From the sequence record MN158212.1: a stretch of 44,592 bases of DNA. One strand, 5' to 3'. The notes under the pieces are model-generated. The model was not told the DNA's origin, did not search any database, and saw only the letters and a program-made list of their open reading frames with translations. Source of the stretch: Escherichia phage BEK1-1. This document shows positions 69 through 42,189 of the stretch, in pieces (positions within the stretch are counted from its first letter, which is position 1; each line of letters opens with the position of its first letter). The position numbers and the translations under genes are program-made.

Positions 69-494
69 TCAGAATGGGATGTCGTCCTCGAAGTTCTGTT
101 GCTGCTGAAGTTGCTGTTGCCGCTGAGGTTGCTGTTGCTGTTGCTGCGGCTGTTGCTGCTTCTGCGGTGCTGAATCACCGCGCTGACTAAACTCAAGTCG
201 CGGATTGTTCATGTTAATGGTTACGTAAGTCTTACCATCTTTATCCCTAACATCTACAGCCAGGCTTTCAGCGCTAACACTAACAACTTTACCTTCTTGA
301 AATGCATCATTGTACCAATCTAACATAGATTCTTTAGCGAATAAGACGGCACGATAATTTGTGTACTGTGATTGACCATCTTTATCTTTGTATCGCTCAC
401 TCAAATCAACTGCGAACATTTTCCAGTTACCATTAGCGTTTACGCCTTCTTTGGTGAATGGAGCGCGGCGAATGTGACCAGTAATTACGTGCAT
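69..494 (-). CDS. ssb: single-stranded DNA-binding protein
   Basis: 141 aa; OB-fold-like N-terminal part, Gln-rich linker, C-terminal acidic tip ...EDDIPF as in bacterial SSB (DDDIPF); RBS-like GAGAGA upstream. Confidence 0.85.
   Translation of the reverse strand: MHVITGHIRRAPFTKEGVNANGNWKMFAVDLSERYKDKDGQSQYTNYRAVLFAKESMLDWYNDAFQEGKVVSVSAESLAVDVRDKDGKTYVTINMNNPRLEFSQRGDSAPQKQQQPQQQQQQPQRQQQLQQQQNFEDDIPF
94..166 (-). repeat. imperfect CTG/TTG-rich (coding-strand CAG/CAA) simple repeat encoding the poly-Gln linker of SSB
   Basis: Direct reading: gctgttgctgttgctgcggctgttgctgcttctg; translates to QQQPQQQQQQPQRQQQLQQQQ. Confidence 0.8.
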
Positions 495-535
495 GTTTTT
501 ATCTCTCTATTGTTGGGGCCGAAGCATCTCTTAAA

Positions 536-1186
536 TTAGAATGTGTCGATTTGTCTTGATTCTACTTCAATCTTTTCTTCAGGACTACTTTTTTCTGCAA
601 CTTTCTTTGGTGTTGCTGGGTTGAAGCCATTCGCTGCATTTGCTTCAATCTCTGCCTTTCGCTCTATGATGTGGGGTTCGAAAACCTTCCATCCTGCTGC
701 ATCAAGTGACTGCTTAGCCTCCTTCCAGACATTGCGAAGCTCATCAAGAGTATTGCATTTCTCTAGCTCTCGCTTAAAGTCCTTAACACCTTTCGCTGCC
801 AGATTACCATCATCATCTGCCTGGCTAAGTCCTAACGCCGCTGTGATTCCGTAACGTCGAGCGTATGTTAAAGCTGAGCCGTAACCTTGTGCATCATTCT
901 TACTGATTGGTACGATCATCAAGAAGCTAACCCACTCTCCAGATTCAGCATGAAACAGTTTTGTCTCAACCTTCATGCGATTGGTTTGTTCATCATCAAG
1001 TACACTCTGGAACATAACAATCCCACACTCATCTAAACCAGGCTCAACGGCCGCCAAAACGTCTTCTAGGGTAGCGTACTTGTTCTTTAAGTGTGAGTTC
1101 TGCTTAGACTTTTCAGCCTTCGCAAATAGCGATTTGGCAGTGTGCAGCGCGTTTAAAATTGATTTGCATGATTCTGAAATTTGCAT
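536..1186 (-). CDS. ERF-family single-strand annealing protein (probable)
   Basis: Track ORF 536..1228; start moved to internal ATG (MQISESC...) preceded by GAGG, since the upstream codons overlap the promoter -10; motif GSALTYARRYGI; lies between ssb and the exonuclease. Confidence 0.5.
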   Translation of the reverse strand: MQISESCKSILNALHTAKSLFAKAEKSKQNSHLKNKYATLEDVLAAVEPGLDECGIVMFQSVLDDEQTNRMKVETKLFHAESGEWVSFLMIVPISKNDAQGYGSALTYARRYGITAALGLSQADDDGNLAAKGVKDFKRELEKCNTLDELRNVWKEAKQSLDAAGWKVFEPHIIERKAEIEANAANGFNPATPKKVAEKSSPEEKIEVESRQIDTF

Positions 1187-1262
1187 ATTTAACCTCGTTC
1201 GTCGTTGATGGGGGTAATCATACTCCACCTTTTAATTTTTTATTTAGCAATTTGTGCTATTT
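1187..1262 (-). promoter_or_regulatory. box promoter (AAATAGCACAAATTGCTAAA, 20 nt, TATGAT, leader ACCCCCATC...) upstream of the annealase gene
   Basis: Direct reading of the reverse complement; same architecture as the other copies. Confidence 0.5.
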
Positions 1263-2226
1263 AAATTTCTTTATACTTCCTCATATCCCACTCAGGAACA
1301 TCTAAGTCGATCTCTGTTGCGCCCATTGCATACCCTGGCCACACGTCATTCTCTTTACACTTCTTGTAAGTGGCAAGCGCCTCTAGATACATTCTGCGGC
1401 CAACCTTCAGTTGCTCTTCTGTAATATTGTAAAGCATTGGTAGGTAAGGCTCCTCTTTCTCGATTGCAAGTAGCCTTACTTTTGTTTTTCTTTTTTCATT
1501 AAAAGCCCTAACAAAAACATCGTGCTGTAGCGCCATTTTTGCAAGATAACCATGCTTGAATGCAAGCCTCCCAAACTCATGAGGTGATGCGCTGGCTGTC
1601 GTCTTCAGGTCGGTAATGCATACCATACCATCAACAACATCGACATGGTCAATTCGGATCTTAACGCCAACGCCAAGAATCTCACCGAAGATAGATAATT
1701 CCTTCTGCGCCGTCTCGCTATTAACGATTGCATTATATGCAGGAATATTGCAAAGAACCTCACGCATCGCGACAACTTTGTCATAGTCTGCTGCGCTAAC
1801 TAGCTCCTTGCCCTCTACAAGAGCCTGTGCGCTCTCCTGCTGCTCAATTAGCCATTTAACAGGCCAATCCTCACCAGATCGATACATCATCTCTACGAGC
1901 TCGCTATAACCCTTCCCGGAAGTGCCAGCCACGCCAACTTTTTTAAGTGCTGAAGCTAAACCTGCCTGGCTTGTAATTAAGCCTTCAATCGCGTCAAGGT
2001 CTGTAGCTCGAAGGTATTCTTTATCGAATACATCTTGCTCCAAAATCATCGTGTGGCTTAGTGTGCCGAACTTAAGCGCCTTGCTATCATTATTTCGCTG
2101 CTTAAATTTCCACTTCGCTGGTGATCCTTGGATAATCTCGACAAGTGAAGAGCCTGAGATGTGGTCAGTTTCAGCGTGGTAAGCCTCGTTGCTTAGTTCT
2201 TCTCGTGTGTAAACTCTGAAAGTCAT
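1261..2226 (-). CDS. PD-(D/E)XK family recombination exonuclease (YqaJ/RecE-like)
   Basis: 321 aa; ...IDHVDVVDGMVCITDLKTT... fits D...(D/E)xK; synteny with annealase and SSB. Confidence 0.55.
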   Translation of the reverse strand: MTFRVYTREELSNEAYHAETDHISGSSLVEIIQGSPAKWKFKQRNNDSKALKFGTLSHTMILEQDVFDKEYLRATDLDAIEGLITSQAGLASALKKVGVAGTSGKGYSELVEMMYRSGEDWPVKWLIEQQESAQALVEGKELVSAADYDKVVAMREVLCNIPAYNAIVNSETAQKELSIFGEILGVGVKIRIDHVDVVDGMVCITDLKTTASASPHEFGRLAFKHGYLAKMALQHDVFVRAFNEKRKTKVRLLAIEKEEPYLPMLYNITEEQLKVGRRMYLEALATYKKCKENDVWPGYAMGATEIDLDVPEWDMRKYKEI

Positions 2227-2424: not shown

Positions 2425-2823
2425 TTACTCCTTAACCTTAACTACTTTAACAGACTTCAAATCTTCTTCAGTGAAGTATCCGCTCAGTACATCCCTAGCT
2501 TCCTCTTTAGTCTCGAATCTGTCAGCCTCGCTCTTATTCGTGGTGTATCCAGCTGGGCCACCAAAATAGCAGTCGCCGAACAGTGCGTTGTTTTTCTCTT
2601 TGATAATGTAGTAGGTCATTTCTGCATCTCTCTGGTTGTTTGCTTTGGATGAGGTAACTATATATTCGCAAGTACAGCCAGTCCAATTGGTTTCGCCAAT
2701 CGTTGATTCAAACTTACGCGTGAATATTTGTAATTCTGTGTAGGCATTGGCACTAGTTACGTTTCTTGGCATCTCATCCCAGATATAGCTCAATGTAACC
2801 ATCGTGTATATCGTGTATATCAT
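2425..2823 (-). CDS. hypothetical protein (132 aa; start uncertain)
   Basis: First gene leftward of divergent control region A; no recognisable motif. Confidence 0.35.
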   Translation of the reverse strand: MIYTIYTMVTLSYIWDEMPRNVTSANAYTELQIFTRKFESTIGETNWTGCTCEYIVTSSKANNQRDAEMTYYIIKEKNNALFGDCYFGGPAGYTTNKSEADRFETKEEARDVLSGYFTEEDLKSVKVVKVKE

Positions 2824-2927
2824 TTATTGCTGATGGTGCATTGGTATAGCTGCCGTGCAATACTGTATAAATCCACATGATACTAAAATTATAACCGGAA
2901 CACTCCAGAACAGTAGTTACATGATAT

Positions 2928-20456: not shown

Positions 20457-21188
20457 CTATTGTGATTCCCAATCTGGAACCGACCAGCAACGACAGCCGT
20501 ATTCTTGGCCTGGAAATATATCGTTACCACCTAGTTTAAAGCTAAGGCCCTCTCTCGCTATATGCGATTGGCGCTCCCTATCATCCAGCATGCCATGCCA
20601 GATGTAACGGCTAACACCAGCATCCTCAAGTCTGCGTCTCATAAGTGTGGAATTCAGACTTGAAACAATCCCAGACGCGATGTTTGCCGTTCGCTTTCTG
20701 TATGTTTTGTACCTATCTGATAACTTAACGTAATCCCCATTCTGTATTGTTGCGGCCGTCTGCAAGAAATCATCTTTAATGTTATTCAGTAATTTAATCA
20801 CTGACTTATCCGTGGTGTAAATCCACTGATTAAGGTCATCATTATACCACGGCTCACCACCATTGATGCCGTTAACCTCAAGGTTCAGAACGCTAGGATT
20901 GGACCTTCCTCCGGTCTTTATTGCAAGCGCAAGAAATTGCGAGCTATTGTATCTGTATATCGCCGCCCCTATAGCCGGGATGGTTGATATAAATGACGCC
21001 ACCAATGCAGAAATTATCCCCTCAAGATATCCATCCTCCTCCCCTAGCTCCTCTGCAGTATCAATTCTAAGCCTTGTTGCTGACTCCTTCATTGCTGAAA
21101 TTAACTCAGTTACCGCAATGCTGAGATTGCGGTTAACCTGGCTCTCAATTGTCTGCGGATACTTCCAGCGGGTCGTTACTGGTTTCAC
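20457..21188 (-). CDS. minor head protein (Mu gpF / SPP1 gp7-like head morphogenesis)
   Basis: 243 aa; position immediately after portal; C-terminal ...WHGMLDDRERQSHIAREG...YGCRCW. Confidence 0.5.
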   Translation of the reverse strand: MKPVTTRWKYPQTIESQVNRNLSIAVTELISAMKESATRLRIDTAEELGEEDGYLEGIISALVASFISTIPAIGAAIYRYNSSQFLALAIKTGGRSNPSVLNLEVNGINGGEPWYNDDLNQWIYTTDKSVIKLLNNIKDDFLQTAATIQNGDYVKLSDRYKTYRKRTANIASGIVSSLNSTLMRRRLEDAGVSRYIWHGMLDDRERQSHIAREGLSFKLGGNDIFPGQEYGCRCWSVPDWESQ

Positions 21189-22413
21189 TAATCGTCACCT
21201 CTGTCTCTACTGAACCGTCACTAATCTTAACCTCTGGAGCGATTGCGCGCAATGTATCTCTCGCTTCGTCAATATCCATAGCGCCAGATGCAATTAGCGT
21301 CGCGATGCTGCTTACGTTCTTCTCCAGAATATCCGCTTTACCCTTGCTGGACTCTTGCGCTAAAGGATTAAACTCAACTGACCATTTGTCAACGTTAACA
21401 ATGAACGGAATCAGGAACCCGAGAATCGGCAGTAGTTCAGCGTTACGCTTGCGATCGACTAGCTTATGGAATGTCTCTAGCGCCGTATTCTGGCTGGATG
21501 ACACACCACCAACGTTCTTGTTCTTTAGGATGATTTCATGAATACCGCTCAGAGCAACGATTCTGTCAAACTTCTTATCCAGGAACGCATCAATCCCGCC
21601 AATATCAGAGTTCAGAACGCTGTATTCTTCAGACTCTGCATCAATGCCAATCGCCTGGCCAACGCCGCTATTGTTATCAACCTGTGCAAGTCGTAATCGA
21701 GCAGCGCCAAATCCCTCACTATCGTCACATAACTCAGCCAGTCCTTTCGCTTTCCATACCGCTTGCTGCTTGCGCTTCAGTAACTGCGTAGCAAGTCGTT
21801 CGCAGTTGGTGTAATCCTTAATTGAGTCAAGAATGTCACTGGAGAGAACGCTGCGGCCCCAGCCATCATTCTGCCGACGCATTGCGTTAGGTACTCGCTC
21901 ACCGTCAATGATGTGAATGCGACTGTAATGCACATCGTAGAACATATCTCTTTCGTTTGTGGTGATGCGATAGGTTAGCGGCTTACCAAAGCGCGCGTTG
22001 CGTGGGTTCTCCTCGCGAGTTTGTACTTTTACTTGCGTGCGGTCGTAAACGCGGACAGTTTCAAGTTCGGAACCCTCTCTGACCGGACTTGTTAGCGCCC
22101 TATTGTCCTTAACGATAGCGACAATTGCCGCCCCACCGAATAATCTAGCCCACGACCAGGCTTCATTGATGTGCTTTGTTAGTTCTAGATAGTCCCAGCG
22201 CGACCAGAATGCAGGCTCATCATCAATACCATCAATGTGGAATCCTGCCGCTAATGCTGTTTCCGGGATTGTATCAACGATTCGACGCACCAGCGCATTA
22301 TCCGCATAAAGCGAAGCCAGAATTGTAGGGGATTGGCTCTGCAAACTCCCGTAAATCTCACTACCATCACTGCCGCCTAGAAAGATACTGGCGTAGCTGT
22401 CTGTCTTAACCAT
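21145..22413 (-). CDS. portal protein
   Basis: Start at internal ATG (MVKTDSY...) after GGAG; about 422 aa; directly downstream of terminase large subunit. Confidence 0.75.
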   Translation of the reverse strand: MVKTDSYASIFLGGSDGSEIYGSLQSQSPTILASLYADNALVRRIVDTIPETALAAGFHIDGIDDEPAFWSRWDYLELTKHINEAWSWARLFGGAAIVAIVKDNRALTSPVREGSELETVRVYDRTQVKVQTREENPRNARFGKPLTYRITTNERDMFYDVHYSRIHIIDGERVPNAMRRQNDGWGRSVLSSDILDSIKDYTNCERLATQLLKRKQQAVWKAKGLAELCDDSEGFGAARLRLAQVDNNSGVGQAIGIDAESEEYSVLNSDIGGIDAFLDKKFDRIVALSGIHEIILKNKNVGGVSSSQNTALETFHKLVDRKRNAELLPILGFLIPFIVNVDKWSVEFNPLAQESSKGKADILEKNVSSIATLIASGAMDIDEARDTLRAIAPEVKISDGSVETEVTISETSNDPLEVSADN

Positions 22414-22429
22414 GTTTTTCTCCAATAGA

Positions 22430-22461: not shown

Positions 22462-24027
22462 CTATTTAATTCCCGCTATGCGCATTAGTCGCGCTTTAGG
22501 ATCATCAGCAATGTTAAGCACCAGGTTTATTGCCATTGTCATGGTATCAATTTGGTCGTCGTGTTTGTGTGAGTCGTCAGCAGTAAAAGACGCAATCTCC
22601 GTAAGCAATCCATTTAGCCACGGCGCAGACTCCGGTAGAACCACGTTACCAGCCTTAATCTGCGGCAGGGCGCTCATCACCCTGGTTAGCTTGTCGCTAT
22701 CCGGAGCGTATGGCTCTATCGGTGTTCGCATAACCCTGCCAGCTGATTGAATCAGGCCGATACCAGAGGCTTTCTTCTCGATAATAATCTTTCGGAGGAT
22801 GCCATCCGACTGACTGGTTGCCCTTGATTTCTTCTCGAAGTCCAGTAATTCAGCCTCTAATTCTGGAGCCTCCCATTTACCCCTACGCTGGTCTATCAGG
22901 TAAATCTTAGCATCCTTATAGCCCCACAACTGAAGTACAGAGAAGTCACTATAACTCTTCGTGGTCATCGCAGTATCGCAAGTTATGAATCTATAATCGT
23001 ACTTGGCTGGAGGCCTGAATGTATCACTAAGACGCTGGAACCAGTCTACGTTAATCAGGTTGCCACCAAGTGCCACTGGTTCTTGTTGATACTGGCTGAG
23101 AAAAGTGTACGGGTCACTATCCCACATCGCAACCAGGTCGTTTACTGACTCCTTTTTTGGGAAGTAACTATAGTACTTTACGCCATCTCTCTCAATGCAC
23201 TCACTGCTTAAAACGTCTTCCGCAAACTGGTCTTTAATCCAGTCAGGTAGCGAGTCGATGTAATCCTCAGTAACTAGCGCTGGTATCTTAATCAAGTCAA
23301 AATCGATGCCCATCCCACCTTCCATCATGAACCATGTTGAGTCATTGACGTGCAAGCGCTGCTGTATAGAAATGATTGGTGTTGCCTTTCCTTTTACAGA
23401 GCTAGCGCGACGTGATCGAATTGTGTTCTTAAGCATTACGTGGTTGTTAGCTCGATAAACCGGAGAAAGCATATCTGCGGGCTTATCGAAATCATCTAAC
23501 AACACCGCACCACTGTAATTTTCAGTTATGTAGCCACCGCGAGCACCAGTAATCTGGCCTCCAGCCGCCTTTGATATTGACTCAAACCTAACCTTTCCGC
23601 TCTCATCAAGAACCTGAAGCTCATCATCCTTGCATGTGCCAAACTTGCAAGGCCAGAGTGATTGAAATTCTTGAGACTTGATAAGGTCACGTACGCGCTT
23701 CGAGTTACGCTTTACCAGTGAGTCTGCAAATGAGATGTTAAGGTTTCTAACCTTCTTCAGCTTAACCATTGAGTAGGCTGGAAAGTGTATCGATGCAATC
23801 TCTGTCTTGCCGCTACCAGGCGCTATATTGATAATAGTGTCCTTACGTTCTCCTGCGATAATCTCGTCAATGATTCTGCACAAGTACTTGTGATGCCAGT
23901 TAGGGATGTATCGCTCGCCTTGCGTGATCTGGAACCAACAACGAAGGAAACCCTCGAAGCTGTGTTCTGATATCGCCTTGACGGCCATCTTTTCCTGAAT
24001 GGTCATTTCTTCCCATACCAAAGACAT
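22462..24027 (-). CDS. terminase large subunit
   Basis: 521 aa; P-loop-like ...IAPGSGKT..., Walker-B-like ...VLLDDFDK..., acidic C-terminal nuclease-like region; position. Confidence 0.8.
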   Translation of the reverse strand: MSLVWEEMTIQEKMAVKAISEHSFEGFLRCWFQITQGERYIPNWHHKYLCRIIDEIIAGERKDTIINIAPGSGKTEIASIHFPAYSMVKLKKVRNLNISFADSLVKRNSKRVRDLIKSQEFQSLWPCKFGTCKDDELQVLDESGKVRFESISKAAGGQITGARGGYITENYSGAVLLDDFDKPADMLSPVYRANNHVMLKNTIRSRRASSVKGKATPIISIQQRLHVNDSTWFMMEGGMGIDFDLIKIPALVTEDYIDSLPDWIKDQFAEDVLSSECIERDGVKYYSYFPKKESVNDLVAMWDSDPYTFLSQYQQEPVALGGNLINVDWFQRLSDTFRPPAKYDYRFITCDTAMTTKSYSDFSVLQLWGYKDAKIYLIDQRRGKWEAPELEAELLDFEKKSRATSQSDGILRKIIIEKKASGIGLIQSAGRVMRTPIEPYAPDSDKLTRVMSALPQIKAGNVVLPESAPWLNGLLTEIASFTADDSHKHDDQIDTMTMAINLVLNIADDPKARLMRIAGIK

Positions 24028-24044: not shown

Positions 24045-24551
24045 TTATAGCTTACCAATCACAGACTCCAGCGCTTCCTTCATGCTATCAACGTCGTTAG
24101 CTGTGGAGTTATTGCTAATTGTAATCTCCTGCGGCTTATCAATCCCTAACTCTTTACCAACGATTGTGGAGCTGATGATGCCTGCAACGCCAAGCTGATA
24201 CTTCTGCTCATAAATTACGTTATCAATGAATTCCATCACATCAGAGTATCCAGCCTCAGTACGCCAGCGTGCGAATCTATTTATATTAACTCCCATGAAT
24301 AGCGCCAGCCCGGTTAATGTGAACACTCGCGGCTTGTGTACAAGGTTTTCACTAACAACGCCCTGGAAAGCCGCCGTCTCAATAGCTTTGATTGCCTCAC
24401 TCTCTGCCCATGAGAAGTATCGAACAGCGAAATCAAAAACTTCCTCGGGAGTGTACTTGCGGTTGATTGCCACCATGGCAATATCGCCATACTTCTTGTT
24501 GTATAGCGCCTTGAAATTTCCCTCACCCATTTTTAATGCTGCTTTGCTCAT
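24045..24551 (-). CDS. terminase small subunit (probable)
   Basis: 168 aa immediately upstream of the large subunit; ...FTLTGLALFMGVNINRFARW... resembles the helix-turn-helix DNA-binding region of small subunits. Confidence 0.6.
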   Translation of the reverse strand: MSKAALKMGEGNFKALYNKKYGDIAMVAINRKYTPEEVFDFAVRYFSWAESEAIKAIETAAFQGVVSENLVHKPRVFTLTGLALFMGVNINRFARWRTEAGYSDVMEFIDNVIYEQKYQLGVAGIISSTIVGKELGIDKPQEITISNNSTANDVDSMKEALESVIGKL

Positions 24552-28363: not shown

Positions 28364-28385
28364 TGTTTAGCAATTCGTGCTATTC
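28340..28385 (-). promoter_or_regulatory. box promoter (AATAGCACGAATTGCTAAA, 20 nt, TATGAT, leader ACCCAATCGAAAACA)
   Basis: Direct reading; the box overlaps the TAG stop of the upstream gene. Confidence 0.55.
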
Positions 28386-28904
28386 GCCGATAATAAGCGA
28401 TTTAGCTTTCCGGTAGAAATCGACAGCCCTCTCCACCTCTTCCTCATTGTACCGCAAGTGGTATGGTAGTCTACTAGCGTGCTCACCTTCGTAAGTTTTG
28501 AAGTTAGGTTGCCAGTACTCATCAATGATAGCTGGGTGGACGTAAATCTTATCCCCAATGAGGAAAACTAGATTCATTTCCTCTAGATCAGGGATTAGTT
28601 CGTCCTTAATGCGAGCTATGATATCAAGGCATCCTACGAACGGCTTAATCTTTCGAGCCTCCTCGTGTACAGACTTGACACCCACCACTCCCCTTCCGTT
28701 TCTTGCCATCTTCCTGATCAGCTTAATCAGAACTCCCAGCGCTTCATCTCTGTAGACTTCCGATGCATCAGGCTGGCCCCATAGGTGCTGAACATGCCGA
28801 TAACCGTTAGCATTGATTGCAACCCGCAGTGGCGGTAGCCCATCCTGGATAGCAATATTCATAATCTGCTCGTCCGTCAGTTTCTCTTCATCGAAATTAA
28901 ACAT
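28380..28904 (-). CDS. hypothetical protein (174 aa), short paralogue of the 527-aa P-loop protein
   Basis: N-terminus MFNFDEEKLTDEQIMNIAIQDGLPPLRVAINANGYR and C-terminus ...NGRGVVGVKSVHEEARKIKPF...LIGDKIYVHP align with the ends of ORF 31388..32971. Confidence 0.5.
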   Translation of the reverse strand: MFNFDEEKLTDEQIMNIAIQDGLPPLRVAINANGYRHVQHLWGQPDASEVYRDEALGVLIKLIRKMARNGRGVVGVKSVHEEARKIKPFVGCLDIIARIKDELIPDLEEMNLVFLIGDKIYVHPAIIDEYWQPNFKTYEGEHASRLPYHLRYNEEEVERAVDFYRKAKSLIIGE

Positions 28905-29452
28905 CAGTTAGTCTCCTTAATCATTTCATAGTAACGGGCCAGGGCAATGAGAGCGCCTTCTTTCTGCTCGCCTTGCAGGTCGATAACGTTAGGTGTGATC
29001 TTGAGTAACCGAGCCTTGAACCTTTCAATGATGGCGGCCTCCTTCTCTGCTTCCTGCTTCTTCTTCTCACGATTTCCAGTCCAGTGAGCGCCGTTCTCAA
29101 TATAGATTACCAGGTATTTATCAGCACCATCGCCGTCGAAATTACCCGGCCTGGTTTGCTCGCCTTCATCGTCAATCCAGATGAACTTGTAGCGCGCTCG
29201 CTTGTTGGCGTCTCGTAGTTCAGTCATTCGCGATACGGTATTGTAGATGTACGAGTTCTTGAGTTCAGGCATCGACCTGTCTGCCAGGTTTAGGATCTCG
29301 TCAGTCTCTTCGTCATACTCCATTTCGGGATATGGCTTGCCGCGAACAAGTTTGAATATCTGGCTTACCGGAACTTTGAACTCGCCGTTCTCAGACGCCA
29401 TTGCGTTACGGACCATCTCACGGATAACTTCGCCAAGTGTTAATTTCTGCAT
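28904..29452 (-). CDS. hypothetical protein (182 aa)
   Basis: First gene leftward of divergent control region B. Confidence 0.4.
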   Translation of the reverse strand: MQKLTLGEVIREMVRNAMASENGEFKVPVSQIFKLVRGKPYPEMEYDEETDEILNLADRSMPELKNSYIYNTVSRMTELRDANKRARYKFIWIDDEGEQTRPGNFDGDGADKYLVIYIENGAHWTGNREKKKQEAEKEAAIIERFKARLLKITPNVIDLQGEQKEGALIALARYYEMIKETN

Positions 29453-29731
29453 GTTGATACCTCGTTTCGTTTACTTCGTTTCAGTGATTGCCATCTTGCC
29501 ACTTGTTTACGTGTCGGTCAACGTATTTTTATGTCTATTTCATCGCGGATACGTTTTTCGGCCTCCAAGTTAGCGTCAGCACTGGTTGTAAACGTGCCGT
29601 ATCCCCTGTGTACAGTTTTGTAGGGTACTTTCCTATATATGTGCCTTTTTATTCCTACAATGTCATCCCATTCTGACAAGTGTCAGAATATCTGCACGGA
29701 ACATATCAACTATTGCCTCCGTGAGCGGTAT

Positions 29732-29797
29732 ACACAGTATACATATATATAATAATAATAATAATAATAAAGTAAAAGGTTGATATATATAGATATT
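29732..29797. repeat. AT-rich element copy 2: ACACAGTA-(ATA)n-TAAAAGGTTGATATATATAGATATT
   Basis: Near-identical to 2928..2985, with a longer ATA run. Confidence 0.7.
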
Positions 29798-29983
29798 ATA
29801 TTGTATATCGTGTGTATATCTCGCGTAAAAACGTAGGTTAGTGGTCACTAACTTTTGTGACGACACTGAGTATACGGAGGATACGCGTATATCGATGAGA
29901 ACCTTACCGATTGGTAAAAAATCAACTTGTATGGTAGTCCATCCATCTTTCATTCACTCACTCACCACTTTATTTTACTTTTC

Positions 29984-30069
29984 GCAACAATCAAAGACAT
30001 CATTGCATCTGAAGCAATATTGCTGTATATGCAATAATCATGTGAATCATTGCAATATCTGCAACAATC
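29984..30069. repeat. iteron-like cluster (GCAACAATC x2, ATCATTGCA x2, palindrome GCAATATTGC)
   Basis: Direct reading of gcaacaatcaaagacatcattgcatctgaagcaatattgctgtatatgcaataatcatgtgaatcattgcaatatctgcaacaatcc. Confidence 0.5.
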
Positions 30070-30085
30070 CATAAATCTGACGAAT

Positions 30086-30129
30086 GGCACTTTTTGCTAA
30101 AGACACTGGAGGTCATGGAGGATATAGTT
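30086..30129 (+). promoter_or_regulatory. box promoter, half-box variant (CACTTTTTGCTAAA, about 20 nt, TATAGT, leader AACTCATCAAAACGAGG)
   Basis: Direct reading. Confidence 0.45.
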
Positions 30130-30154
30130 AACTCATCAAAACGAGGAGATAGAA

Positions 30155-30334
30155 ATGAAGATTGATAAAGATGAACTTCGTAACGAATGCGCACTGATTG
30201 GGCTTAATGAAGATTACACGAAACTTGTGGTGCGCGGAAAGTTAGACATTGACTTGGCTAAGCAATTCCAGTCAGAAGATGAATTCATGTGCTGTGATGG
30301 GCTTGGCTGCGCAGAATGTTTACCATTTATTTGA
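30155..30334 (+). CDS. hypothetical Cys-rich small protein (59 aa)
   Basis: Below the track cutoff; GAGGAG RBS; C-terminal CCDGLGCAEC cluster. Confidence 0.4.
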   Translation: MKIDKDELRNECALIGLNEDYTKLVVRGKLDIDLAKQFQSEDEFMCCDGLGCAECLPFI

Positions 30335-30344
30335 GGATTGAGAC

Positions 30345-30584
30345 ATGAAAACTCGCTGTACCAATTGCATTACAAGTACCGGCAAGAAGGTATTAACTCC
30401 ATTCGTTAAAGGCTCTGTATACGACGCTGAGCCGCTAATCATTAACGGTAAGGCAATCCCGAACGAATGGTTGATTAATGGCGCTGAGAGACCGCACAAG
30501 CACGATTCTGGATGGATTGCTATCGCTGGCTGGAAGGTTGGGATGTTTATTCCTGGGATTGCAACTTTTGACGAGGTGAAGTGA
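30345..30584 (+). CDS. hypothetical protein (79 aa)
   Basis: ORF with RBS-like GAGG; second gene of the rightward early operon. Confidence 0.4.
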   Translation: MKTRCTNCITSTGKKVLTPFVKGSVYDAEPLIINGKAIPNEWLINGAERPHKHDSGWIAIAGWKVGMFIPGIATFDEVK

Positions 30585-30745
30585 TGCTGCTGCCATCTGA
30601 GATAAATTATTTCGATCTTGAAGTCATAAGCGCATACAGCTGGAAGGGTTGGCCTTGCGGGGACTGGTTTCGCGAAGACTTACTTGAGAGTCATGAAATT
30701 ATGCTCAAGGCCATAGAAAAAGCACGAAATAGCACTAATTGCTAA
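30584..30745 (+). CDS. hypothetical protein (53 aa)
   Basis: ATG overlaps the upstream stop (TGATG); 3' end AAT AGC ACT AAT TGC TAA coincides with the box. Confidence 0.35.
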   Translation: MLLPSEINYFDLEVISAYSWKGWPCGDWFREDLLESHEIMLKAIEKARNSTNC

Positions 30746-30772
30746 ACACTGATCGCAAGGATGCGGTATTAT
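30727..30772 (+). promoter_or_regulatory. box promoter (AAATAGCACTAATTGCTAAA, 20 nt, TATTAT)
   Basis: Box and spacer nearly identical to the cor promoter (CACTGATCGCAAGGATGCG). Confidence 0.5.
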
Positions 30773-30798
30773 CTTTACATCAAAACGGGAGATAAGAA

Positions 30799-30963
30799 AT
30801 GTTCGACAACTTTCATGACGCGATAGAAGAGGCATTGTACCGCGCGTCACTTGATGGGAAGATTTACGGTTTAGTTCAGAAGGTTGACAAGATTGTTGTG
30901 CGAATCGTGCGCAAATCAGTACCTAACAAATTCATGTGGACAACTAAGAGAGTAACAAAATGA
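30799..30963 (+). CDS. hypothetical protein (54 aa)
   Basis: GGGAG RBS; below the track cutoff. Confidence 0.35.
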   Translation: MFDNFHDAIEEALYRASLDGKIYGLVQKVDKIVVRIVRKSVPNKFMWTTKRVTK

Positions 30964-31313: not shown

Positions 31314-31387
31314 TAAGCACAAATTGACAATGAATTATAAGCGGCCGTTGATATAATGGCCGCTCAGAAACAATACGGAGACAAGTA

Positions 31388-32971
31388 ATGTTCGATTTCA
31401 ACGAAGATAAACTATCTGTTGAACAGGTTATGGCAATTGCTGCCGCAGAAAACCTCCCGCCCCTGCGCGTCGCCATTAATGCTAATGGCTATCGCCAGTC
31501 CCAGTCATTCTGGAAAGCACCAGTCGAGATTGATGCAGCTAATGACAAGTATCCAGTAATCTCACTAGGTAATGACATTGATGTTGTTGGTAAGCTGTCA
31601 GCTAATATTGCCCGATCTGTTCAGTTCCCTGAGTCGTCAGCTTACATGCACTTCCTGGGGTGTATTTCCGCTGCAATGCTGGGTCGATTTACTGTTGAGT
31701 ATCACGGAACGCAGCAACCGACTTCGCTTTACGTCGTAACAAGCCAGCCACCATCCACTGGTAAATCAGCCATTAACTCGCTATCGATTGCTCCAATGAT
31801 TGCTGAGACTCAGCGACTAAATGAAGTTAGAAAGCGTGAGCGCAAGAAAATTATGGCAAAACTATCTGCATTATCGAAAGAGATGAAACAGGAAAAATCT
31901 CCGTCAGAGATGGCCTCTCTTTTTGAGGAGAAGGAGGAGTTGGAGGAAAAACTCGAGAAACTATGCGATATCGTTTTCCCAGTATCAGATACCACACCAG
32001 AAGGTCTGGCCCGAATCAACAACCGCCAGGGCAACTTTGCTGTAATCTCTGATGAGGCAACGAGTGTAAACTCACTACTTGGCATGACCTATGGTGACGG
32101 CTCAAAGAAAACGAACAGCGAACTGGTACTGAAGGCATGGGATGCTGGTAACGTATCTATCGCTCGCGCTAACGCTGAAAACAACATGAGTTTTGTTGCT
32201 ATGGGTTGCATCTCTGTAATTGCGCAGGATGAGACAATCAACGCTATCATGAACGCTGGCGCGCGTGGTATCGGTGTATCTGAGCGTTTCCTGCTTGTAC
32301 GTGAAAAGTCATTCCTTGGCGAGCGTGTATTCGTTGATGAAAATGGCGAATCGACTTATGAACCAATTGATGCCGGGTTGAAGGCTGATTACTTCCGTTT
32401 AGTTCACGAAATCATGAATGAGCAAGATGTAAAGTTGACGGTGAGCAACTCAGCGATGAAATATCTCAACCGTGCACGTCAGGAAATGGAGCCTCATCTT
32501 GCTGACGGCGGTAAGTATTCCCACACAATGTTGCGCGGCGCGCTGGGTAAGTTCGATAAACAGGCTATAAGGATTGCAGCCGTTCTTCACACAGTTCGCA
32601 ACTGGTTCAACCCTAACGGTGGGAGTCCACAGAAGTCCAGAGAAATCGAGCTCGACACCATGCAAGAGGCTGTGATTATGTTCCAGGAACTGAGTAAGAC
32701 TTATTTGTCATCTGCCAACGCTGCGGGTCACGCTGGCGACAATGCAGAGATGAATAAGCTGATTGATATCCTGATTAAGCAAGGCAAAAACGGGAAAGGA
32801 GTAGTAGGTATTCGTTCGCTATATGAAGCGGCTCGCAAGGTTAAGCCATTCGAGGCTCAGGCTGGAGTGATGACGAAGATTAAAGATCACCTGCTGCCAA
32901 TGCTTGATGAGAAAAACTATACGTGCCTGATTGGTGATAAGGTTTACATTAATCCGCGACTTCTGGGGTGA
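31388..32971 (+). CDS. P-loop NTPase-like protein (527 aa), long paralogue of ORF 28380..28904
   Basis: Walker-A-like ...TSQPPSTGKSAI..., Walker-B-like ...FAVISDEAT... about 100 aa later; N- and C-terminal about 45 and 65 aa match the 174-aa protein. Confidence 0.5.
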   Translation: MFDFNEDKLSVEQVMAIAAAENLPPLRVAINANGYRQSQSFWKAPVEIDAANDKYPVISLGNDIDVVGKLSANIARSVQFPESSAYMHFLGCISAAMLGRFTVEYHGTQQPTSLYVVTSQPPSTGKSAINSLSIAPMIAETQRLNEVRKRERKKIMAKLSALSKEMKQEKSPSEMASLFEEKEELEEKLEKLCDIVFPVSDTTPEGLARINNRQGNFAVISDEATSVNSLLGMTYGDGSKKTNSELVLKAWDAGNVSIARANAENNMSFVAMGCISVIAQDETINAIMNAGARGIGVSERFLLVREKSFLGERVFVDENGESTYEPIDAGLKADYFRLVHEIMNEQDVKLTVSNSAMKYLNRARQEMEPHLADGGKYSHTMLRGALGKFDKQAIRIAAVLHTVRNWFNPNGGSPQKSREIELDTMQEAVIMFQELSKTYLSSANAAGHAGDNAEMNKLIDILIKQGKNGKGVVGIRSLYEAARKVKPFEAQAGVMTKIKDHLLPMLDEKNYTCLIGDKVYINPRLLG

Positions 32972-34739: not shown

Positions 34740-34786
34740 ATTATGCCGCATTTCTACGGCATTAGTTAGGCAAAAAGTGCTATTTA
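34740..34786 (-). promoter_or_regulatory. box promoter, half-box variant (AAATAGCAC..., 20 nt, CATAAT, leader ACCACATCGAAACGAG)
   Basis: Direct reading of the reverse complement. Confidence 0.45.
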
Positions 34787-35265
34787 CCGTGCCTCTCTGT
34801 GAATTCTGGGTTACCCTCGTAAACTGACTTCGCATATGATACTGCTTCTTCTTTTGTGTAGAAGGTTTTGTAAACCCTGTTTTTATCAATCTGAATTTGA
34901 ACAAGCCACGGCTTTCCATCCCTTTTTATCTTATTTATGAAGTAAACACCTGTAACTCCTGATGTGTTATCCTTTCTCATAGCTGCATTCTTGCAGTTAA
35001 CCCATCTATCTACGCATCTCAAATTCTCTATCCGATTATCGTGCTTAACTCCATTAATGTGATCGATTTCCATACCTTTAGGGACTTCTCCGTTATGCAT
35101 TTCCCATATTACTCGATGGGCAAAAGTCATCTTTGAAAACAGTTTAGTCCTAACGTACCCCCTCAAATCAATATACCCAGCCTTAACTCCGTTATAAGAT
35201 GATACCCTGTGGTTCTTTCTGTACAAATCACCATTTGAATATTCGTAATAATCGTGCCAATTCAT
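34780..35265 (-). CDS. HNH homing endonuclease with AP2-like DNA-binding domain
   Basis: ...AHRVIWEMH...EIDHINGVKHDNRIENLR... (HNH) and ...SGVTGVYF...KPWLVQI...KTFYTKEEA... (AP2-like). Confidence 0.7.
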   Translation of the reverse strand: MNWHDYYEYSNGDLYRKNHRVSSYNGVKAGYIDLRGYVRTKLFSKMTFAHRVIWEMHNGEVPKGMEIDHINGVKHDNRIENLRCVDRWVNCKNAAMRKDNTSGVTGVYFINKIKRDGKPWLVQIQIDKNRVYKTFYTKEEAVSYAKSVYEGNPEFTERHGK

Positions 35266-37696: not shown

Positions 37697-38110
37697 TGAA
37701 ATCATTTCTTCAAATGCTGCCAGGAAGCCCTCTCTACCGTAGGCAACTCCAGCGAAACCTCCTGATTCTCTCACGCTTTTAAGGAAGGACTTCTGTTCGT
37801 CACTGACTGGACTAGCTTGAGTTTTTCCCGCCCTCTTTAGCTCTATGGCCCCAAAAGGGTACTTTCCTCTAAGTGATTCAGGTATCAGGAATAAGCAGTC
37901 CGAAACCCCCTTAAGCAATCCTTTGGCCTGGTCCTTCCTTGCTTGTCCAATGGTCTTCTTACCCTCATTCACGCAGTGGAAAAATACCATCTCTGGATAG
38001 TTATACTTAACCCAATCAGAGCAAAAGATTTGTTCGTCATCCTCTTTCGGGCATGACTTAACCGGGCCAGGGTAAAACTCAATGTAATCAACTTTGTCTG
38101 TAATGTTCAT
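37691..38110 (-). CDS. VRR-NUC domain nuclease
   Basis: ...GVSDCLFLIPE...GAIELKRAGKTQASPVSDEQKSFL...GGFAGVA fits the VRR-NUC PD-(D/E)XK pattern; coupled to the helicase gene. Confidence 0.6.
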   Translation of the reverse strand: MNITDKVDYIEFYPGPVKSCPKEDDEQIFCSDWVKYNYPEMVFFHCVNEGKKTIGQARKDQAKGLLKGVSDCLFLIPESLRGKYPFGAIELKRAGKTQASPVSDEQKSFLKSVRESGGFAGVAYGREGFLAAFEEMISK

Positions 38111-40101
38111 AACAATTCTCCAAAATTCTTAAAAGCTATTATATCATTTCCTTTGCCATTCTTGCGGTGTGTCACCTGGACTGGCGCACGAAACTTATCT
38201 GCGTTAGTCATAATCATTCTGGCATTCTTCAGTCTGCCAATTCGTGCTGCTTCAGCTCGATTTTCAATGTGAGCAAGGCAAAAGTTTTTCCAAAGCACAC
38301 TACAAACCCTGTGGTCAGATTCTGGATTGAAGAACTCCCAAGCATTAAACCGCTCTCCGTTGTGCGCCATGATATTGTACTTAACAACAATTCCCGTTTG
38401 GTTCTTACTTAAGCCAACCTGAAAATCATAAACACGAAGGTAATCACCACGTCGATACATTTTTCCAGTAAGATTGGCATTCGGGTCTTTAAGCATTTCT
38501 CCGCATTCACGACAAACTTTTGCTGCTATGTCATTTTTAGTTCCACAACCTTTCTTGATTACCGCCTTTGTTTGTTGGTCGGTAATATCATCACATGTCG
38601 TGAACTGGAAAAAGTGATCGCATCTAACACCATCAATCTTATTGCTACAGCGTCTAGCAAATGGCGAGTTCTCATATCCACATTTCGGACACTGGCGAAC
38701 CTCATCACCACCTTTTCTTGAGGATTTAAACTTCTCAGCCTGAATCTCCTCAATTATTGGGTCAAAGTAAAGCTCTGCCATGTCATCAAGCGCCCCGGCA
38801 AAGTCTAATACCAAGTGGTCCTCCTTCTTGAACCCAGCATCTATGTGCGCCTTTTTTAGTTTTCGCATGCCACGACCAAGAAGCTGAATCATTAAGGTTA
38901 TACTGCCAATCTTGCGTAGTATGACGCTAGTATCCCACAGTGGTTGGTTTACGCCCGTGGTTAGACATCCAATCTGAAAGATAATCTTGTACTTTCCAGT
39001 CTGGCAATCAGCAAGAATCTCCCTGCGCTTCTTCTCCCCCGTAGAATCAGTAATGATAGCGTAAGGGTATCCATCTGGGAGTGCCTCGGCGGCTTCATCA
39101 CAATGTAGTTTGCCAGCGCATGTTACCAATGCGGCATTGCGAGTCTCAAGTATTTTTACAACAAAACCCATTATCTTTTGAGTCATGGATTGGTTGTCGT
39201 GAATCTTTGCAGCCATTGCGTCCATTTCTTTCTTGCTGAAATCCTTCACGCCATCGCTTCCGTCTGGCGCAAACTCACTAAGGTCATAACCAAGGTCACC
39301 AACCTCGCCGTAAACAGTTGGTACCACGAATCCCAAATCAACAAGGTAATTTGTTGGAACCTGAATCACAGTTTTTCGCCAGAACCCACGGATGTTTGGA
39401 TTGCTAACGACGATATGGTCATTATTTCGATAAGGGCTACCAGTAAGGCCGAATATACGAAGCTCCCGCCCGTATTTTTCACGGCAGCGACGCTTCATCT
39501 CAGTGATTATTAACGTGTACTGCGCGCGACCAGTGCCAAGCAACCCTGTGTTTACGCCATCCTTAAAAACCATCTCGCCTTTCTTTGTGCTCATCTGCTC
39601 AAATGTTTCTTCATTCTCTTCGGCTTCCACGATATCCATGTGATCGACCATGTGGCATTCATCTATAGCTATAACGGCAGGAACATAGTCACCAAGCCCC
39701 TTAAACAAGCCGTTAGCTGCCGTGCCCTCACTAGCAACTATGGTTGGGTAGTAAACTGATTTAACGTTAAGTCCGGCGCAATAGACGCTGTTGCGGATGC
39801 CGAAATTACGAAGTTCTTCTGAGTTCTGGCTTATTATCTCTGACTGGCGAGAAAGAACCATGTAAGGCAACCCTAATTGCTCCATTCGCTTTCCAATCAT
39901 GGCGAGAATGATTGTCTTACCAGCAGATACTGAAAGGTCTGCGATAAATGGGGCCTCGTACTTCCCAATAGCCTTTCCGATAGCATCAAATGTAACGCAC
40001 TGGAACTCGTAAGGAGTTATCTCTCCAAACTGATAATCTTTCTGAATCTGTTTAATTCTTTCTTTATCAAAGTTTGCAACCTGCTTCTCGATAGGCAACA
40101 T
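38107..40101 (-). CDS. DExH-box (SF2) helicase with C-terminal Cys-rich zinc-ribbon region
   Basis: Motif I-like ...SVSAGKTIIL..., motif II ...IDECHMV...; C-terminal ...CPKCGYEN...C...C... cluster. Confidence 0.7.
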   Translation of the reverse strand: MLPIEKQVANFDKERIKQIQKDYQFGEITPYEFQCVTFDAIGKAIGKYEAPFIADLSVSAGKTIILAMIGKRMEQLGLPYMVLSRQSEIISQNSEELRNFGIRNSVYCAGLNVKSVYYPTIVASEGTAANGLFKGLGDYVPAVIAIDECHMVDHMDIVEAEENEETFEQMSTKKGEMVFKDGVNTGLLGTGRAQYTLIITEMKRRCREKYGRELRIFGLTGSPYRNNDHIVVSNPNIRGFWRKTVIQVPTNYLVDLGFVVPTVYGEVGDLGYDLSEFAPDGSDGVKDFSKKEMDAMAAKIHDNQSMTQKIMGFVVKILETRNAALVTCAGKLHCDEAAEALPDGYPYAIITDSTGEKKRREILADCQTGKYKIIFQIGCLTTGVNQPLWDTSVILRKIGSITLMIQLLGRGMRKLKKAHIDAGFKKEDHLVLDFAGALDDMAELYFDPIIEEIQAEKFKSSRKGGDEVRQCPKCGYENSPFARRCSNKIDGVRCDHFFQFTTCDDITDQQTKAVIKKGCGTKNDIAAKVCRECGEMLKDPNANLTGKMYRRGDYLRVYDFQVGLSKNQTGIVVKYNIMAHNGERFNAWEFFNPESDHRVCSVLWKNFCLAHIENRAEAARIGRLKNARMIMTNADKFRAPVQVTHRKNGKGNDIIAFKNFGELL

Positions 40102-40202: not shown

Positions 40203-40688
40203 ATGAATGCAGTCGACAAGCGAACCATTAACGGTAATAACGGAACCATCCGCACTGAAGACAAAAAGCAACGGAAACGACCTTCAGGTTACTACGTTTT
40301 GAAAGATGAGGTAAGGGCGGGTTTACGTGCGCGGCTGGAAATTGTTCTTGATTTCTTCGGCACAAAGGCAAATATGGCAAAGCAATTAAAGGTAACACCA
40401 CAGGCTGTAGAGGAATGGTTTAAGCGCGGCATGATTTCTGCGCGCGGGGCTCAACTCTCACACAACTACTACAAGCGAACCGGGGAAGGCTTTCGCGCCA
40501 CATTCTGCCGACCAGATCTGCAATTCGACGGCAACGGCAAGCCTCTTACTCTACGTTGCAAAAAGCGTCACATGCTGCGTGTTGTTACTGAGGCTGAATT
40601 AGCCACCAAGCCAGAGTGTCGATCATGGCGCAAGATTAAGGAAGAGAATCGCAAAAAGCGAGAAGCAGAGAAAAATAGCACGAATTGA
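40203..40688 (+). CDS. putative HTH DNA-binding regulator (161 aa)
   Basis: ...FGTKANMAKQLKVTPQAVEEWFKRGMIS... resembles a Cro/CI-type helix-turn-helix; basic N- and C-termini. Confidence 0.45.
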   Translation: MNAVDKRTINGNNGTIRTEDKKQRKRPSGYYVLKDEVRAGLRARLEIVLDFFGTKANMAKQLKVTPQAVEEWFKRGMISARGAQLSHNYYKRTGEGFRATFCRPDLQFDGNGKPLTLRCKKRHMLRVVTEAELATKPECRSWRKIKEENRKKREAEKNSTN

Positions 40689-40738: not shown

Positions 40739-41269
40739 GTGTATATGAAAGTTAATGATTTTGTTTATGTTGATGATGAATTTAAATTAAGATGGAAGAG
40801 TAGAGGTGTTGAATTCTTCAAAACAGAGAGGTCATCAAAGATCTGGAATAGTAGGTTTGCAAACAAGGAATGTGGATACATTAGGGATGACGGCTATCTT
40901 TCTTTTGAGTTCAATGGTCGAGCATACAGAAATCACAGGGTGATATGGGAAATTGTAACTGGTAATGAAATAGATGATAACATGGAGATTGACCATATAG
41001 ATCATAATACAACAAACAACAATACTGAAAACCTTAGACTTGTTGACAGGAAAGAGAATTGCAAAAACCAATCCATGATGCCCCATAACTCGAGTGGCTT
41101 CACAGGTGTTCACTGGTGGTCAGCAAGAAACAAATGGAGAGCCCGCATCGAATGTGATGGCAGAGTGAAAACAAAAACATTTGAAGACTTTAATGACGCC
41201 GTCGAGTGGAGAAAAGAAATGAACATAAATCTTGGCTTTCACAAGAATCATGGAGATAAGAAAAAATGA
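40739..41269 (+). CDS. HNH homing endonuclease with AP2-like domain (paralogue of 34780..35265)
   Basis: ...YRNHRVIWEI...EIDHIDHNTTNNNTENLR... and ...SGFTGVHW...KWRARIECDGRVKTKTFEDFNDAVEW... Confidence 0.7.
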   Translation: MYMKVNDFVYVDDEFKLRWKSRGVEFFKTERSSKIWNSRFANKECGYIRDDGYLSFEFNGRAYRNHRVIWEIVTGNEIDDNMEIDHIDHNTTNNNTENLRLVDRKENCKNQSMMPHNSSGFTGVHWWSARNKWRARIECDGRVKTKTFEDFNDAVEWRKEMNINLGFHKNHGDKKK

Positions 41270-42189
41270 AATTTTATGATAAGAAAGAGGTATTGCCAAG
41301 AATGATGGGGATGTGGAAGGATGCCCTCATAAACATTTGTGATGCGCCTGAGAGCTTCTTTAATGGCAAGCACCAGCCATGCCTATATTGTGGAGGTCGG
41401 GATCGGGCTAGATGGACTGATAACCTATCTATAAAAGGTGACGGCGGAAATATATGCAATCAGTGCGGAAACGACACTGGAATAGGGTTGATGATGAGGC
41501 TTACTGGAATGAACTACAATGAGGCCATAAATGTATTAGGTGACTGGCTCAACCTTATACCTACAGAGGCTATATCAAAAGCAAACAAAAGAGCTTCAAG
41601 AACATCACCATACAAAATGGGAGCACAGATCGACCACGAAAGATGCCTGGAGATAATGGAAAGAACTGAAAGAGTAGAATCAACCCCACTCAGCACATAT
41701 GAGGGTATCTATAGTGAGTTTGGTTTTGATGTTGGCAGGACAAAATCAGGCGAACTAATACACGCAATACCGTGTTTTATGGCTTATAGTGACGGCATAT
41801 CGGAAGAAATGTGCAATGTAATGTTTATCAATGAAGATGGAGATGTTAGTTATGCTGCAAAAGATTATACTCGCCAATCTGTCGCTGTTATTGGTGCCTT
41901 TAAAAGTGATGAGTACGCTTATCTGGTCGATAATCTCATTGACGGCTATCGTGTTCACATTGCTACTGGGAGCCGCTGTGTGCTTGTTTGCTACTCTAGT
42001 TACAACATGGAAATGGTTGCTTATGCGCTTAGAAACCACAAGCTGAGAGTGGCTTGTACTCGCCACGATTTTGATTTACTCGCCGTTGCTGATGATCGCA
42101 ATCTTGATGTGGTAATGCCAAATGATGATAATTTTTTCAAGTCAGGCATAAGAAAGCGAATATACAAAGCAAGCGAATTACTAGACTAA
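41266..42189 (+). CDS. putative DNA primase (N-terminal Zn-ribbon)
   Basis: ...CLYCGGRDRARW...CNQCGN... resembles the primase zinc-ribbon; lies next to the helicase block; ATGA overlap with the HNH gene. Confidence 0.5.
   Translation: MKFYDKKEVLPRMMGMWKDALINICDAPESFFNGKHQPCLYCGGRDRARWTDNLSIKGDGGNICNQCGNDTGIGLMMRLTGMNYNEAINVLGDWLNLIPTEAISKANKRASRTSPYKMGAQIDHERCLEIMERTERVESTPLSTYEGIYSEFGFDVGRTKSGELIHAIPCFMAYSDGISEEMCNVMFINEDGDVSYAAKDYTRQSVAVIGAFKSDEYAYLVDNLIDGYRVHIATGSRCVLVCYSSYNMEMVAYALRNHKLRVACTRHDFDLLAVADDRNLDVVMPNDDNFFKSGIRKRIYKASELLD

Follow-up and report, generated by a model that had tools for sequence, protein, structure and literature searches.

What does a phage do with 702 bp that separate two divergently transcribed genes and seem to encode nothing? 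We asked this question for positions 29453-30154 (termed hub B) of Escherichia phage BEK1-1 (record MN158212.1), which lie between the genes 28904..29452 on the minus strand and 30155..30334 on the plus strand. The stretch of DNA that was analyzed, called the window throughout, has 44,592 bp and is essentially the whole genome of a T1-like siphophage, a Veterinaerplatzvirus-like coliphage of the Drexlerviridae (Braunvirinae). A first-pass annotation of this DNA had presented the gap as a candidate origin or early control region. We propose that hub B is probably a composite region at the physical left end of the T1-like genome and that its cluster of GCAA repeats is the packaging (pac) site. 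Early control held up as one function of the gap, whereas the GCAA repeats did not hold up as iterons of an origin.

Genome ends of relatives map to one block of the gap

Many records of the family start or stop inside the gap, and we therefore checked how their genome ends had been fixed. Four of the ends were obtained with PhageTerm by different laboratories, and they cover at least three genera and two subfamilies (three Braunvirinae, one Rogunavirus). Phage TR1 was assigned a "packaging site at 3,615 bp" (PMC10450929), and its position 3615 maps to window 29941|42. The start determined for MSK (36,862, forward, p=1.6e-9; PMC8421802) maps to 29934|35 on the opposite strand, and packaging therefore proceeds toward lower window coordinates. 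The record start of SU57, which was set from PhageTerm and an abrupt change in coverage (PMC7718038), falls at 29914|15, and the end of the Rogunavirus UDF157lw, deposited in its PhageTerm-reorganized version (PMC10838988), falls at 29940|41. Altogether, the four read-based termini span 28 bp of the window (29914-29942), so that a first cut is documented at the homologous positions of relatives.

Other records open slightly to the right. The T1 record, which carries a 2.8-kb terminal repeat from position 1, opens within a GCAAC|AATC element aligned to 30018|19, the Rogue1 record opens at 30018|19, and that of Rtp at 30024|25. TLS, the pac of which was mapped via a submolar restriction fragment and assigned from its resemblance to the P22 pac (AGATTT) (PMC11447400), has a record that opens at the equivalent spot of its 783-bp hub, between the AT module and the last box promoter (both described below). 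The authors of the SU57 study stated that pac was "not identified" (PMC7718038). Relatives are described as headful packagers with terminally redundant genomes and without cos ends (PMC7718038, PMC11447400, PMC10450929, PMC10838988), and BEK1-1 encodes a small terminase of the pac type. The features at issue are as follows:

24045..24551, minus strand: small terminase, Pfam GP3_package and phrog_606, P22-gp3-type
29914..29942, minus strand: first packaging cut zone (pac terminus), inside the conserved block CAAAATCAACTTGTATGGTAGTCCATCC, with positions transferred from relatives
29953-29964, plus strand: TTCA-CTCA-CTCA repeats, with the cut zone to their left and the GCAA array to their right
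29984..30069: GCAA array of 8-bp GCAAYRAT elements, candidate small-terminase recognition site

Pieces of this DNA also turn up in unexpected records. The Enterococcus phage vB_EfeBG-143 (PQ433353; a 143-kb Herelleviridae record) contains at 2501-2656 62 nt nearly identical to the cut block (29918-29979) and at 1662-1742 an 81-nt piece of the SSB gene (window 375-454), which is likely a chimera formed with contaminating T1-like phage DNA, genuine transfer being the less likely cause. Under the names "Pseudomonas phage PsgS01F" and "Campylobacter phage A110b," the latter with 91% identity across the entire gap, near-identical T1-like genomes have been filed. Their host labels are probably mistaken, as fits a group of phages that often occur as contaminants.

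A single array of alternating GCAA elements lies beside the probable cut zone

The array is composed of six elements with alternating orientation and a spacing of 15-16 bp, in dyad symmetry about 30018|19. Their centers are at 29987.5(+), 30002.5(-), 30018.5 (the palindrome GCAATATTGC, 30014-30023), 30034.5(+), 30049.5(-), and 30064.5(+), the extra, sixth element on the right making the array asymmetric. The repeats read GCAACAATC at 29984 and 30061, GCAATAATC at 30031, and ATCATTGCA at 29999 and 30046, and GCAATATC at 30052 comes in addition to the GCAAYRAT elements. Many relatives have a further TCATTGC element 15 bp leftward of the array. The direct repeats and the palindrome, like the AT element and the CTCA repeats, had been placed correctly by the first-pass annotation.

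GCAAYRAT as such is found at chance level in the genome (13 copies versus 9.8 expected), but 5 of the 13 copies lie inside 85 bp, a stretch in which about 0.02 copies are expected. The same 85 bp hold three of the four genome copies of GCAAYAATC and both copies of ATCATTGCA. As would befit a pac site, of which there is one per genome, ATCATTGCA and GCAATATTGC are confined to the array.

We then looked into the conservation of the gap, the length and layout of which are kept across all 16 Drexlerviridae that were compared. An equivalent divergent gap of 672-713 bp is present in 15 Drexlerviridae (four subfamilies or genera); it is longer in Rtp and PH1062 and has 783 bp in TLS. The order of its components is shared: the leftward gene, a moderately conserved left part, the AT module, a CAAAATCAACTTGTATGGTAGTCCATCC..TTCATTCACTCAC block, the GCAA array, the box promoter, and the rightward small genes. 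The CTCA repeat stretch is kept as TTCATTCACTCAC in Braunvirinae, and CTCACTCAC is found in TLS too. The array is the most conserved noncoding block across Braunvirinae, Rogunavirinae, and Nouzillyvirus. In distant Drexlerviridae, blastn still detects only 29981-30105 within the gap, i.e., the array and the box, at 82-87% identity, whereas the flanking spacer and leader sequences diverge. T1 has a like array alternating at 15 bp (ATCATTGC, GCAACAAT, ACAGTTGC, GCAACAAT), with different bases between the elements.

The first-pass annotation had taken these repeats for iterons and had not considered pac. Iterons are at least three helically phased repeats in the same orientation, which the GCAA cluster does not contain. 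Since its elements have 8 bp, alternate at 15-16 bp, and lie near the DNA ends of relatives, we read the cluster as a pac site and not as iterons. Its geometry would suit a multimeric small terminase touching one face of wrapped DNA. The GCAAYRAT array is thus a candidate pac recognition element that we infer here, not a published feature.

We propose the following sequence of events. The small terminase would recognize the dyad-symmetric GCAAYRAT array at 29984-30069, and the large terminase would make the first cut about 45-100 bp to its left, roughly at 29914-29942 if the cut in BEK1-1 is where it is in relatives, with some first cuts possibly as far as about 30024. Headful packaging would then head to lower coordinates, taking in the leftward early genes and then the terminase and head genes. 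Promoters lie on either side of the array: a sigma-70-like one (about 29493-29521) would drive the leftward operon, and a box-type one (30084-30128) would drive the rightward small genes. The AT module (29722-29840) is a separate, duplicated element that this proposal does not need.

Several points weigh against the assignment of the array as pac. The cut position comes from relatives and not from virion DNA of this phage, and PhageTerm positions can be imprecise for pac phages. The record starts of T1, Rtp, and Rogue1 may reflect convention instead of precise end mapping; the PhageTerm results of TR1, MSK, SU57, and UDF157lw are independent of them. The read-based termini lie 40-70 bp to the left of the array and not inside it, so that the cut-zone block could itself be the recognition element, against which counts that this block is not conserved in Rogunavirinae. 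The pac of TLS has AATCA-type repeats and no GCAA, and the sequence of the array is therefore not universal in the family. Lastly, as the rightward promoter follows immediately on the array, the array may play a role in transcription.

Two further searches concerned the terminase and the array. Small-terminase identity is 95-99% among Braunvirinae, ∼65% with Rogunavirinae, and ∼50% with others; these bands mirror phylogeny and do not separate the readings, and we dropped terminase co-variation as a discriminator. A scan of IMG/VR for GCAACAATC-N6-ATCATTGCA gave few new T1-like loci, and the remaining matches, from unrelated families, were taken as chance. Among them, one locus (L040) and about 21 similar ones are ∼10-kb integrase-bearing islands that carry the motif between divergent genes and whose proteins do not resemble those of the window. 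We took the motif there for a chance match or an unrelated operator, but it is retained in a diverged member of this island family (L042).

An AT module occurs in two copies, one of them without the array

Between the leftward gene and the array, we located an AT-rich module and a further GTATATC copy:

29722..29840, plus strand: AT module of hub B, with TATACACAGTATA, (TAA)7 at 29750-29770, an IHF core at 29773-29785 (minus strand), and four YGTAW units
29887..29893, plus strand: third GTATATC of hub B, inside the conserved block TACGCGTATATC

A TA-rich stretch at ∼29729-29808 encloses the (TAA)7 tract, and the YGTAW units, which include GTATATC at 29803 and 29814, follow with a 10-bp period. 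A second, direct copy of the module, 26.8 kb away at ∼2905-3030, lies in hub A, the divergent gap that separates an Ant/Rha-like gene from the recombination operon. TATACAcAGTA and a (TAA)n tract are found in both copies, as are four YGTAW units (10-bp period) and an identical, perfect match to the IHF core consensus TATCAACCTTTTA, a putative site; the first-pass annotation had also named an IHF-like site. Hub A has the AT module and no GCAA array, and the two elements are therefore separable.

Of all 60-bp stretches in the genome, those of the two modules are by far the least stable (dG of -54 versus a mean of -81 with a standard deviation of 4.7, the next lowest being -65). The two-module layout is also found in T1 (∼214 and 30010) and TLS (∼216 and 28823), and in the window, T1, and TLS alike the modules are always the two least stable duplex stretches, ∼5-6 standard deviations from the mean. 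The pair is thus kept across three subfamilies, and in all phages examined, four YGTAW units at a 10-bp period come after the AT tract in both hubs. These units, having one orientation as well as a regular period, do show iteron geometry, and the stretch 29729-29808, 165 bp from the GCAA array and duplicated in hub A, has the properties of an AT-rich unwinding element. GTATATC occurs 11 times in the genome (4.25 expected), with 7 of the 11 copies in hubs A and B. The IHF consensus WATCAANNNNTTR has 7 genome matches versus 3.2 expected, a number reached by 7 of 100 shuffles, and the core is missing in some relatives. In the AKS96 record, the AT module is annotated as "promoter." A tandem CGTGTATAT-CGTGTATAT at 2803-2822 overlaps the start of 2425..2823 (minus strand) and resembles three tandem GTGTTAATC by the hub B AT module of T1.

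These features raise a possibility that we entertain only tentatively and that is compatible with the GCAA array being pac: the AT module itself (29722-29840) may be an origin or unwinding element by pac, in which case the second copy in hub A would mean two origins or an origin with a cis-acting partner. Consistent with such a role are the extreme instability of both modules in the window, T1, and TLS, the phased YGTAW units of both hubs, the enrichment of GTATATC with its seven copies there, and the identity of the IHF cores. The short repeats near the modules differ between phages (GTGTTAATC/GTGTAAC in T1 and TGTTCAC in TLS, read by eye), as expected if a phage protein co-evolves with them. 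On the other hand, both modules are located in divergent promoter regions, where a promoter, UP, or architectural role is equally possible, the IHF core is not kept in all relatives, and k-mer support in T1 and TLS is weak. GC skew tracks gene strand alone and was discarded as an indicator of an origin. The papers on SU57 and TLS found no origin (PMC7718038, PMC11447400), and our literature search for Drexlerviridae found no origin-mapping or transcriptome paper.

A more specific version of this idea, which we regard as unlikely, involves two further genes:

31388..32971, plus strand: DUF3987 SF3-type helicase, 527 amino acids, 1.2 kb right of hub B
28380..28904, minus strand: truncated DUF3987 paralogue beside hub B, 174 amino acids

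According to this version, AT modules A and B, as unwinding elements with short phased repeats specific to each phage, would jointly make up the long-sought replication origin of T1-like phages, in analogy to the ori and crr of P4; they would be recognized by the DUF3987 helicase and/or its truncated paralogue, and the hub B origin would be coupled within 200 bp to a pac site in the form of a 15-bp alternating array wrapping the small-terminase ring.

The paralogue consists of the N- and C-terminal parts of the DUF3987 protein, and the ATPase core is missing. It shares ∼40% identity with the 527-amino-acid helicase in the N-terminal part and 46% over 69 amino acids in the C-terminal part. It may be a regulator or competitor of the full helicase.

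Probable promoters flank the array on both sides

The following elements were located in the gap, together with a regulator gene elsewhere in the genome:

30084..30128, plus strand: box promoter of the rightward small-gene operon, with the box ATGGCACTTTTTGCTAA at 30084-30100, a -35-like AAGACA at 30100-30105, and the -10 TATAGT at 30123-30128
30129..30157, plus strand: leader CATCAAAACGAGGAG, with the ribosome-binding site GAGGAG at 30143-30148 and the ATG of 30155..30334
29493..29521, minus strand: putative sigma-70-type promoter of the leftward operon, with TTGACC at 29521-29516, a 17-nt spacer, and a weak -10 CAAGAT at 29498-29493
29652..29689: two adjoining dyads, an imperfect TTCCTACAATGTCAT and then a perfect 9+9 palindrome ATTCTGACA-AG-TGTCAGAAT (29669-29689)
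40203..40688: conserved transcriptional regulator

The rightward promoter had been described as a half-box promoter; with its box, its TATAGT, and its ATG at 30155, it turned out to be a genuine member of a box family. The box has one mismatch to ATAGCACNNNTTGNTAA. A genome-wide scan revealed 17 box units of the form ATAGCAC-N3-TTGnTAA:

box units at 1260, 3107, 3867, 15109, 25963, 26753, 27424, 27877, and 28383
box units at 30084, 30729, 34783, 35337, 37694, 40190, 40675, and 42253

All but the unit at 42253 (16/17) have a -10-like hexamer ∼22 nt farther on, and most of the units continue with a leader of the CATCGAAACGA type and then with a ribosome-binding site and an ATG; the unit at 30084 shares this type of leader. 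The TTG of the box is too far from the -10 for a normal -35, which suggests that these are activator-dependent (middle or late) promoters. A 21-nt repeat, aaATAGCACnnnTTGnTAAAA, was reported for TLS, T1, Rtp, and Rogue1, with its function listed as an open question (PMC11447400). Positions 30084-30104 match it except at one position, the third of ATAGCAC, which is G instead of A. As in TLS, the box faces transcription, and it begins 71 nt before the ATG (∼76 nt in TLS), so that match, orientation, and distance to the ATG all place 30084-30104 in the repeat family. Given that a -10 stands at a fixed distance after the boxes of this phage, also at 30084, the box reads as part of a promoter, unlike the published 21-nt repeat. 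A sigma-54 promoter (TGGCAC-N5-GC at 30085) was rejected by eye, the GG-to-GC spacing being 8 nt and not 10.

On the other side, a leader with GAAACGA precedes the leftward ATG at 29452. The putative leftward promoter was read from the sequence; a program scan overlooked it, its -10 matching only at 3/6 positions. At the aligned position, relatives have better hexamers (TTGATA-N16/17-TAATAT or TATAGT). The conserved position thus points to a sigma-70-like promoter at 29493-29521. Together with the rightward box-family promoter, this position bears out the claim of early control.

The dyad site at 29652-29689 is single in the genome. Two of its pairs co-vary among relatives, with 8 cells changed on both sides and 95% paired. 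Relatives have TTCCTACA..TGTAGGAA at this place, and both half-sites have therefore changed in step. The site resembles a tandem operator to which a dimeric regulator would bind, more than it does an RNA hairpin.

A further explanation, to which we give little credence, sees in the GCAA array a dense cluster of operators or enhancers through which a phage regulator would control the rightward (perhaps also the leftward) early promoter, the pac cut nearby being incidental. The box promoter begins 14 bp after the end of the array, box and array are conserved as a unit even where the downstream leader has been replaced (Rtp and PH1062), a conserved transcriptional regulator is encoded by the phage, and a separate, operator-like dyad is found in the same gap. 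However, none of the 16 other box promoters has such an array, six to seven sites over -20 to -105 from the box would be unusual for an operator, and the virion termini map at the array region. This explanation is further weakened by T1, in which a second box promoter is located upstream of the array, so that transcription crosses the array.

We hold it for very improbable that replication starts in hub B with the GCAA repeats as initiator-bound iterons, the AT element unwinding and IHF bending the DNA: the repeats are indeed clustered and conserved, a very unstable AT-rich stretch with a perfect IHF core lies 165 bp from them, an SF3-type DUF3987 helicase is encoded 1.2 kb to the right with its truncated paralogue just to the left, and no origin is yet known for T1-like phages, but the elements, with 8 bp and an orientation that alternates at 15-16 bp, are unlike same-orientation, helically phased iterons, in seven relatives, virion termini map to these elements or to within ∼100 bp of them, hub A has an AT module without the array, and neither DnaA-box-like words above the chance rate nor any GATC is present in the gap. 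The 702 bp of the gap hold three relaxed DnaA-like words, the rate in the genome being 1.6 per kb, and no GATC.

The gap and its gene neighborhood

We also considered whether the gap might contain a gene or an RNA. The first-pass annotation had seen no convincing open reading frame in it, and this was confirmed: the frames 29663..29953 and 29841..30074 have 1-6 stops or frameshifts in each of six relatives, which rules out a hidden gene there. Across the same six relatives, no open reading frame of at least 30 amino acids in the gap stays open, except for a TTG-started frame of 36 codons that has no Shine-Dalgarno sequence. A noncoding RNA was likewise rejected: the predicted folding of the leftward leader (293 nt) does not surpass that of shuffled sequences (z = -1.2). 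An Rfam search of the gap gave no family above threshold, with best E-values of 0.13-0.19, far below gathering scores. The folding of the GCAA array as single-stranded DNA is unremarkable compared to shuffles (z = -0.3).

The region 28900-31400 has 93% identity to Escherichia phage vB_EcoS-12210I (44,219 bp; Drexlerviridae, Braunvirinae, Veterinaerplatzvirus), where the homologous gap carries no annotation. The remaining genes of interest in the window are as follows:

69..2226, minus strand: RecE/Erf/SSB module
22462..24027 and 21145..22425, downstream of the small terminase: large open reading frames, placed where relatives have their large terminase and portal genes
28904..29452, minus strand: left flanking gene of the gap, DUF7174, phrog_4841
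30155..30334, plus strand: right flanking gene of the gap, phrog_9053
38107..40101, minus strand: helicase
41266..42189, plus strand: P4-alpha-like primase

The window contains one tRNA gene, for tRNA-Arg. Two paralogous HNH endonuclease genes (phrog_99), 34780..35265 on the minus strand and 40739..41269 on the plus strand, are found in the replication/lysis region, as in T1.

Significance and comparison with known systems

T1-like phages are widespread contaminants of laboratories and fermentations, candidate therapeutic phages, and generalized transducers. The array and the cut zone provide a testable pac candidate, useful for uniform genome starts, for the prediction of transduction, and for engineering, and setting the pac module apart from the duplicated AT module narrows the search for the origin. 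Such a region is to be expected in a phage of this family; it is not a new kind of element. What we add is modest, namely, independently determined termini that align on a single conserved block, the GCAAYRAT array as a candidate site, and the family-wide pair of AT modules.

The closest counterparts are the left-end pac regions of T1, Rtp, TLS, TR1, SU57, MSK, and UDF157lw, which share with hub B homologous sequence and position, a divergent gap of ∼700 bp with termini or record starts inside, and headful packaging with a P22-gp3-type small terminase. They differ in that TLS is without GCAA elements and in that the published papers define no recognition sequence.

Compared to origins with iterons and an AT-rich element (lambda ori, P4 ori/crr, and SaPI ori), the AT module is similar in being a stability minimum with short phased repeats, in a phage that encodes a P4-alpha-like primase and an SF3-type helicase. 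It differs by repeats of only 5-7 bp, by its two copies per genome, and by having no linked initiator, and the GCAA repeats do not fit the iteron kind.

The small terminase and its P22 counterpart, gp3, are both members of Pfam GP3_package. The pac of P22 (GAAGATTTATCTGAAGTCGTTA) is located within gene 3, whereas the site described here lies 5.4 kb from the terminase gene. The P22 pac core shares the 8-mer ATCTGAAG with positions 30007-30014. We rejected this as a sign of similarity: chance alone would give about 0.3 such matches in the gap, and neither Rogunavirinae nor T1 have kept the 8-mer.

In the pac sites of P1 and SPP1 (pacL/pacC/pacR) and in lambda cosB, short repeats for the small terminase lie beside the cut and not at it. 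The cuts in hub B would likewise be 40-100 bp to the left of the array, on the side that enters the head first. P1 and lambda have an IHF site near the packaging site, and P1 pac carries GATC/Dam sites. In hub B, by contrast, the IHF consensus is ∼150 bp off, in a separate, duplicated module, and GATC/Dam sites as in P1 are absent. There is no sequence similarity to these sites and we claim no homology; the elements here are 8 bp long, spaced by 15-16 bp, and alternating. In outline, hub B is nonetheless like P1, SPP1, and lambda: recognition would be separate from cleavage, the site is single in the genome, and packaging would be directional.

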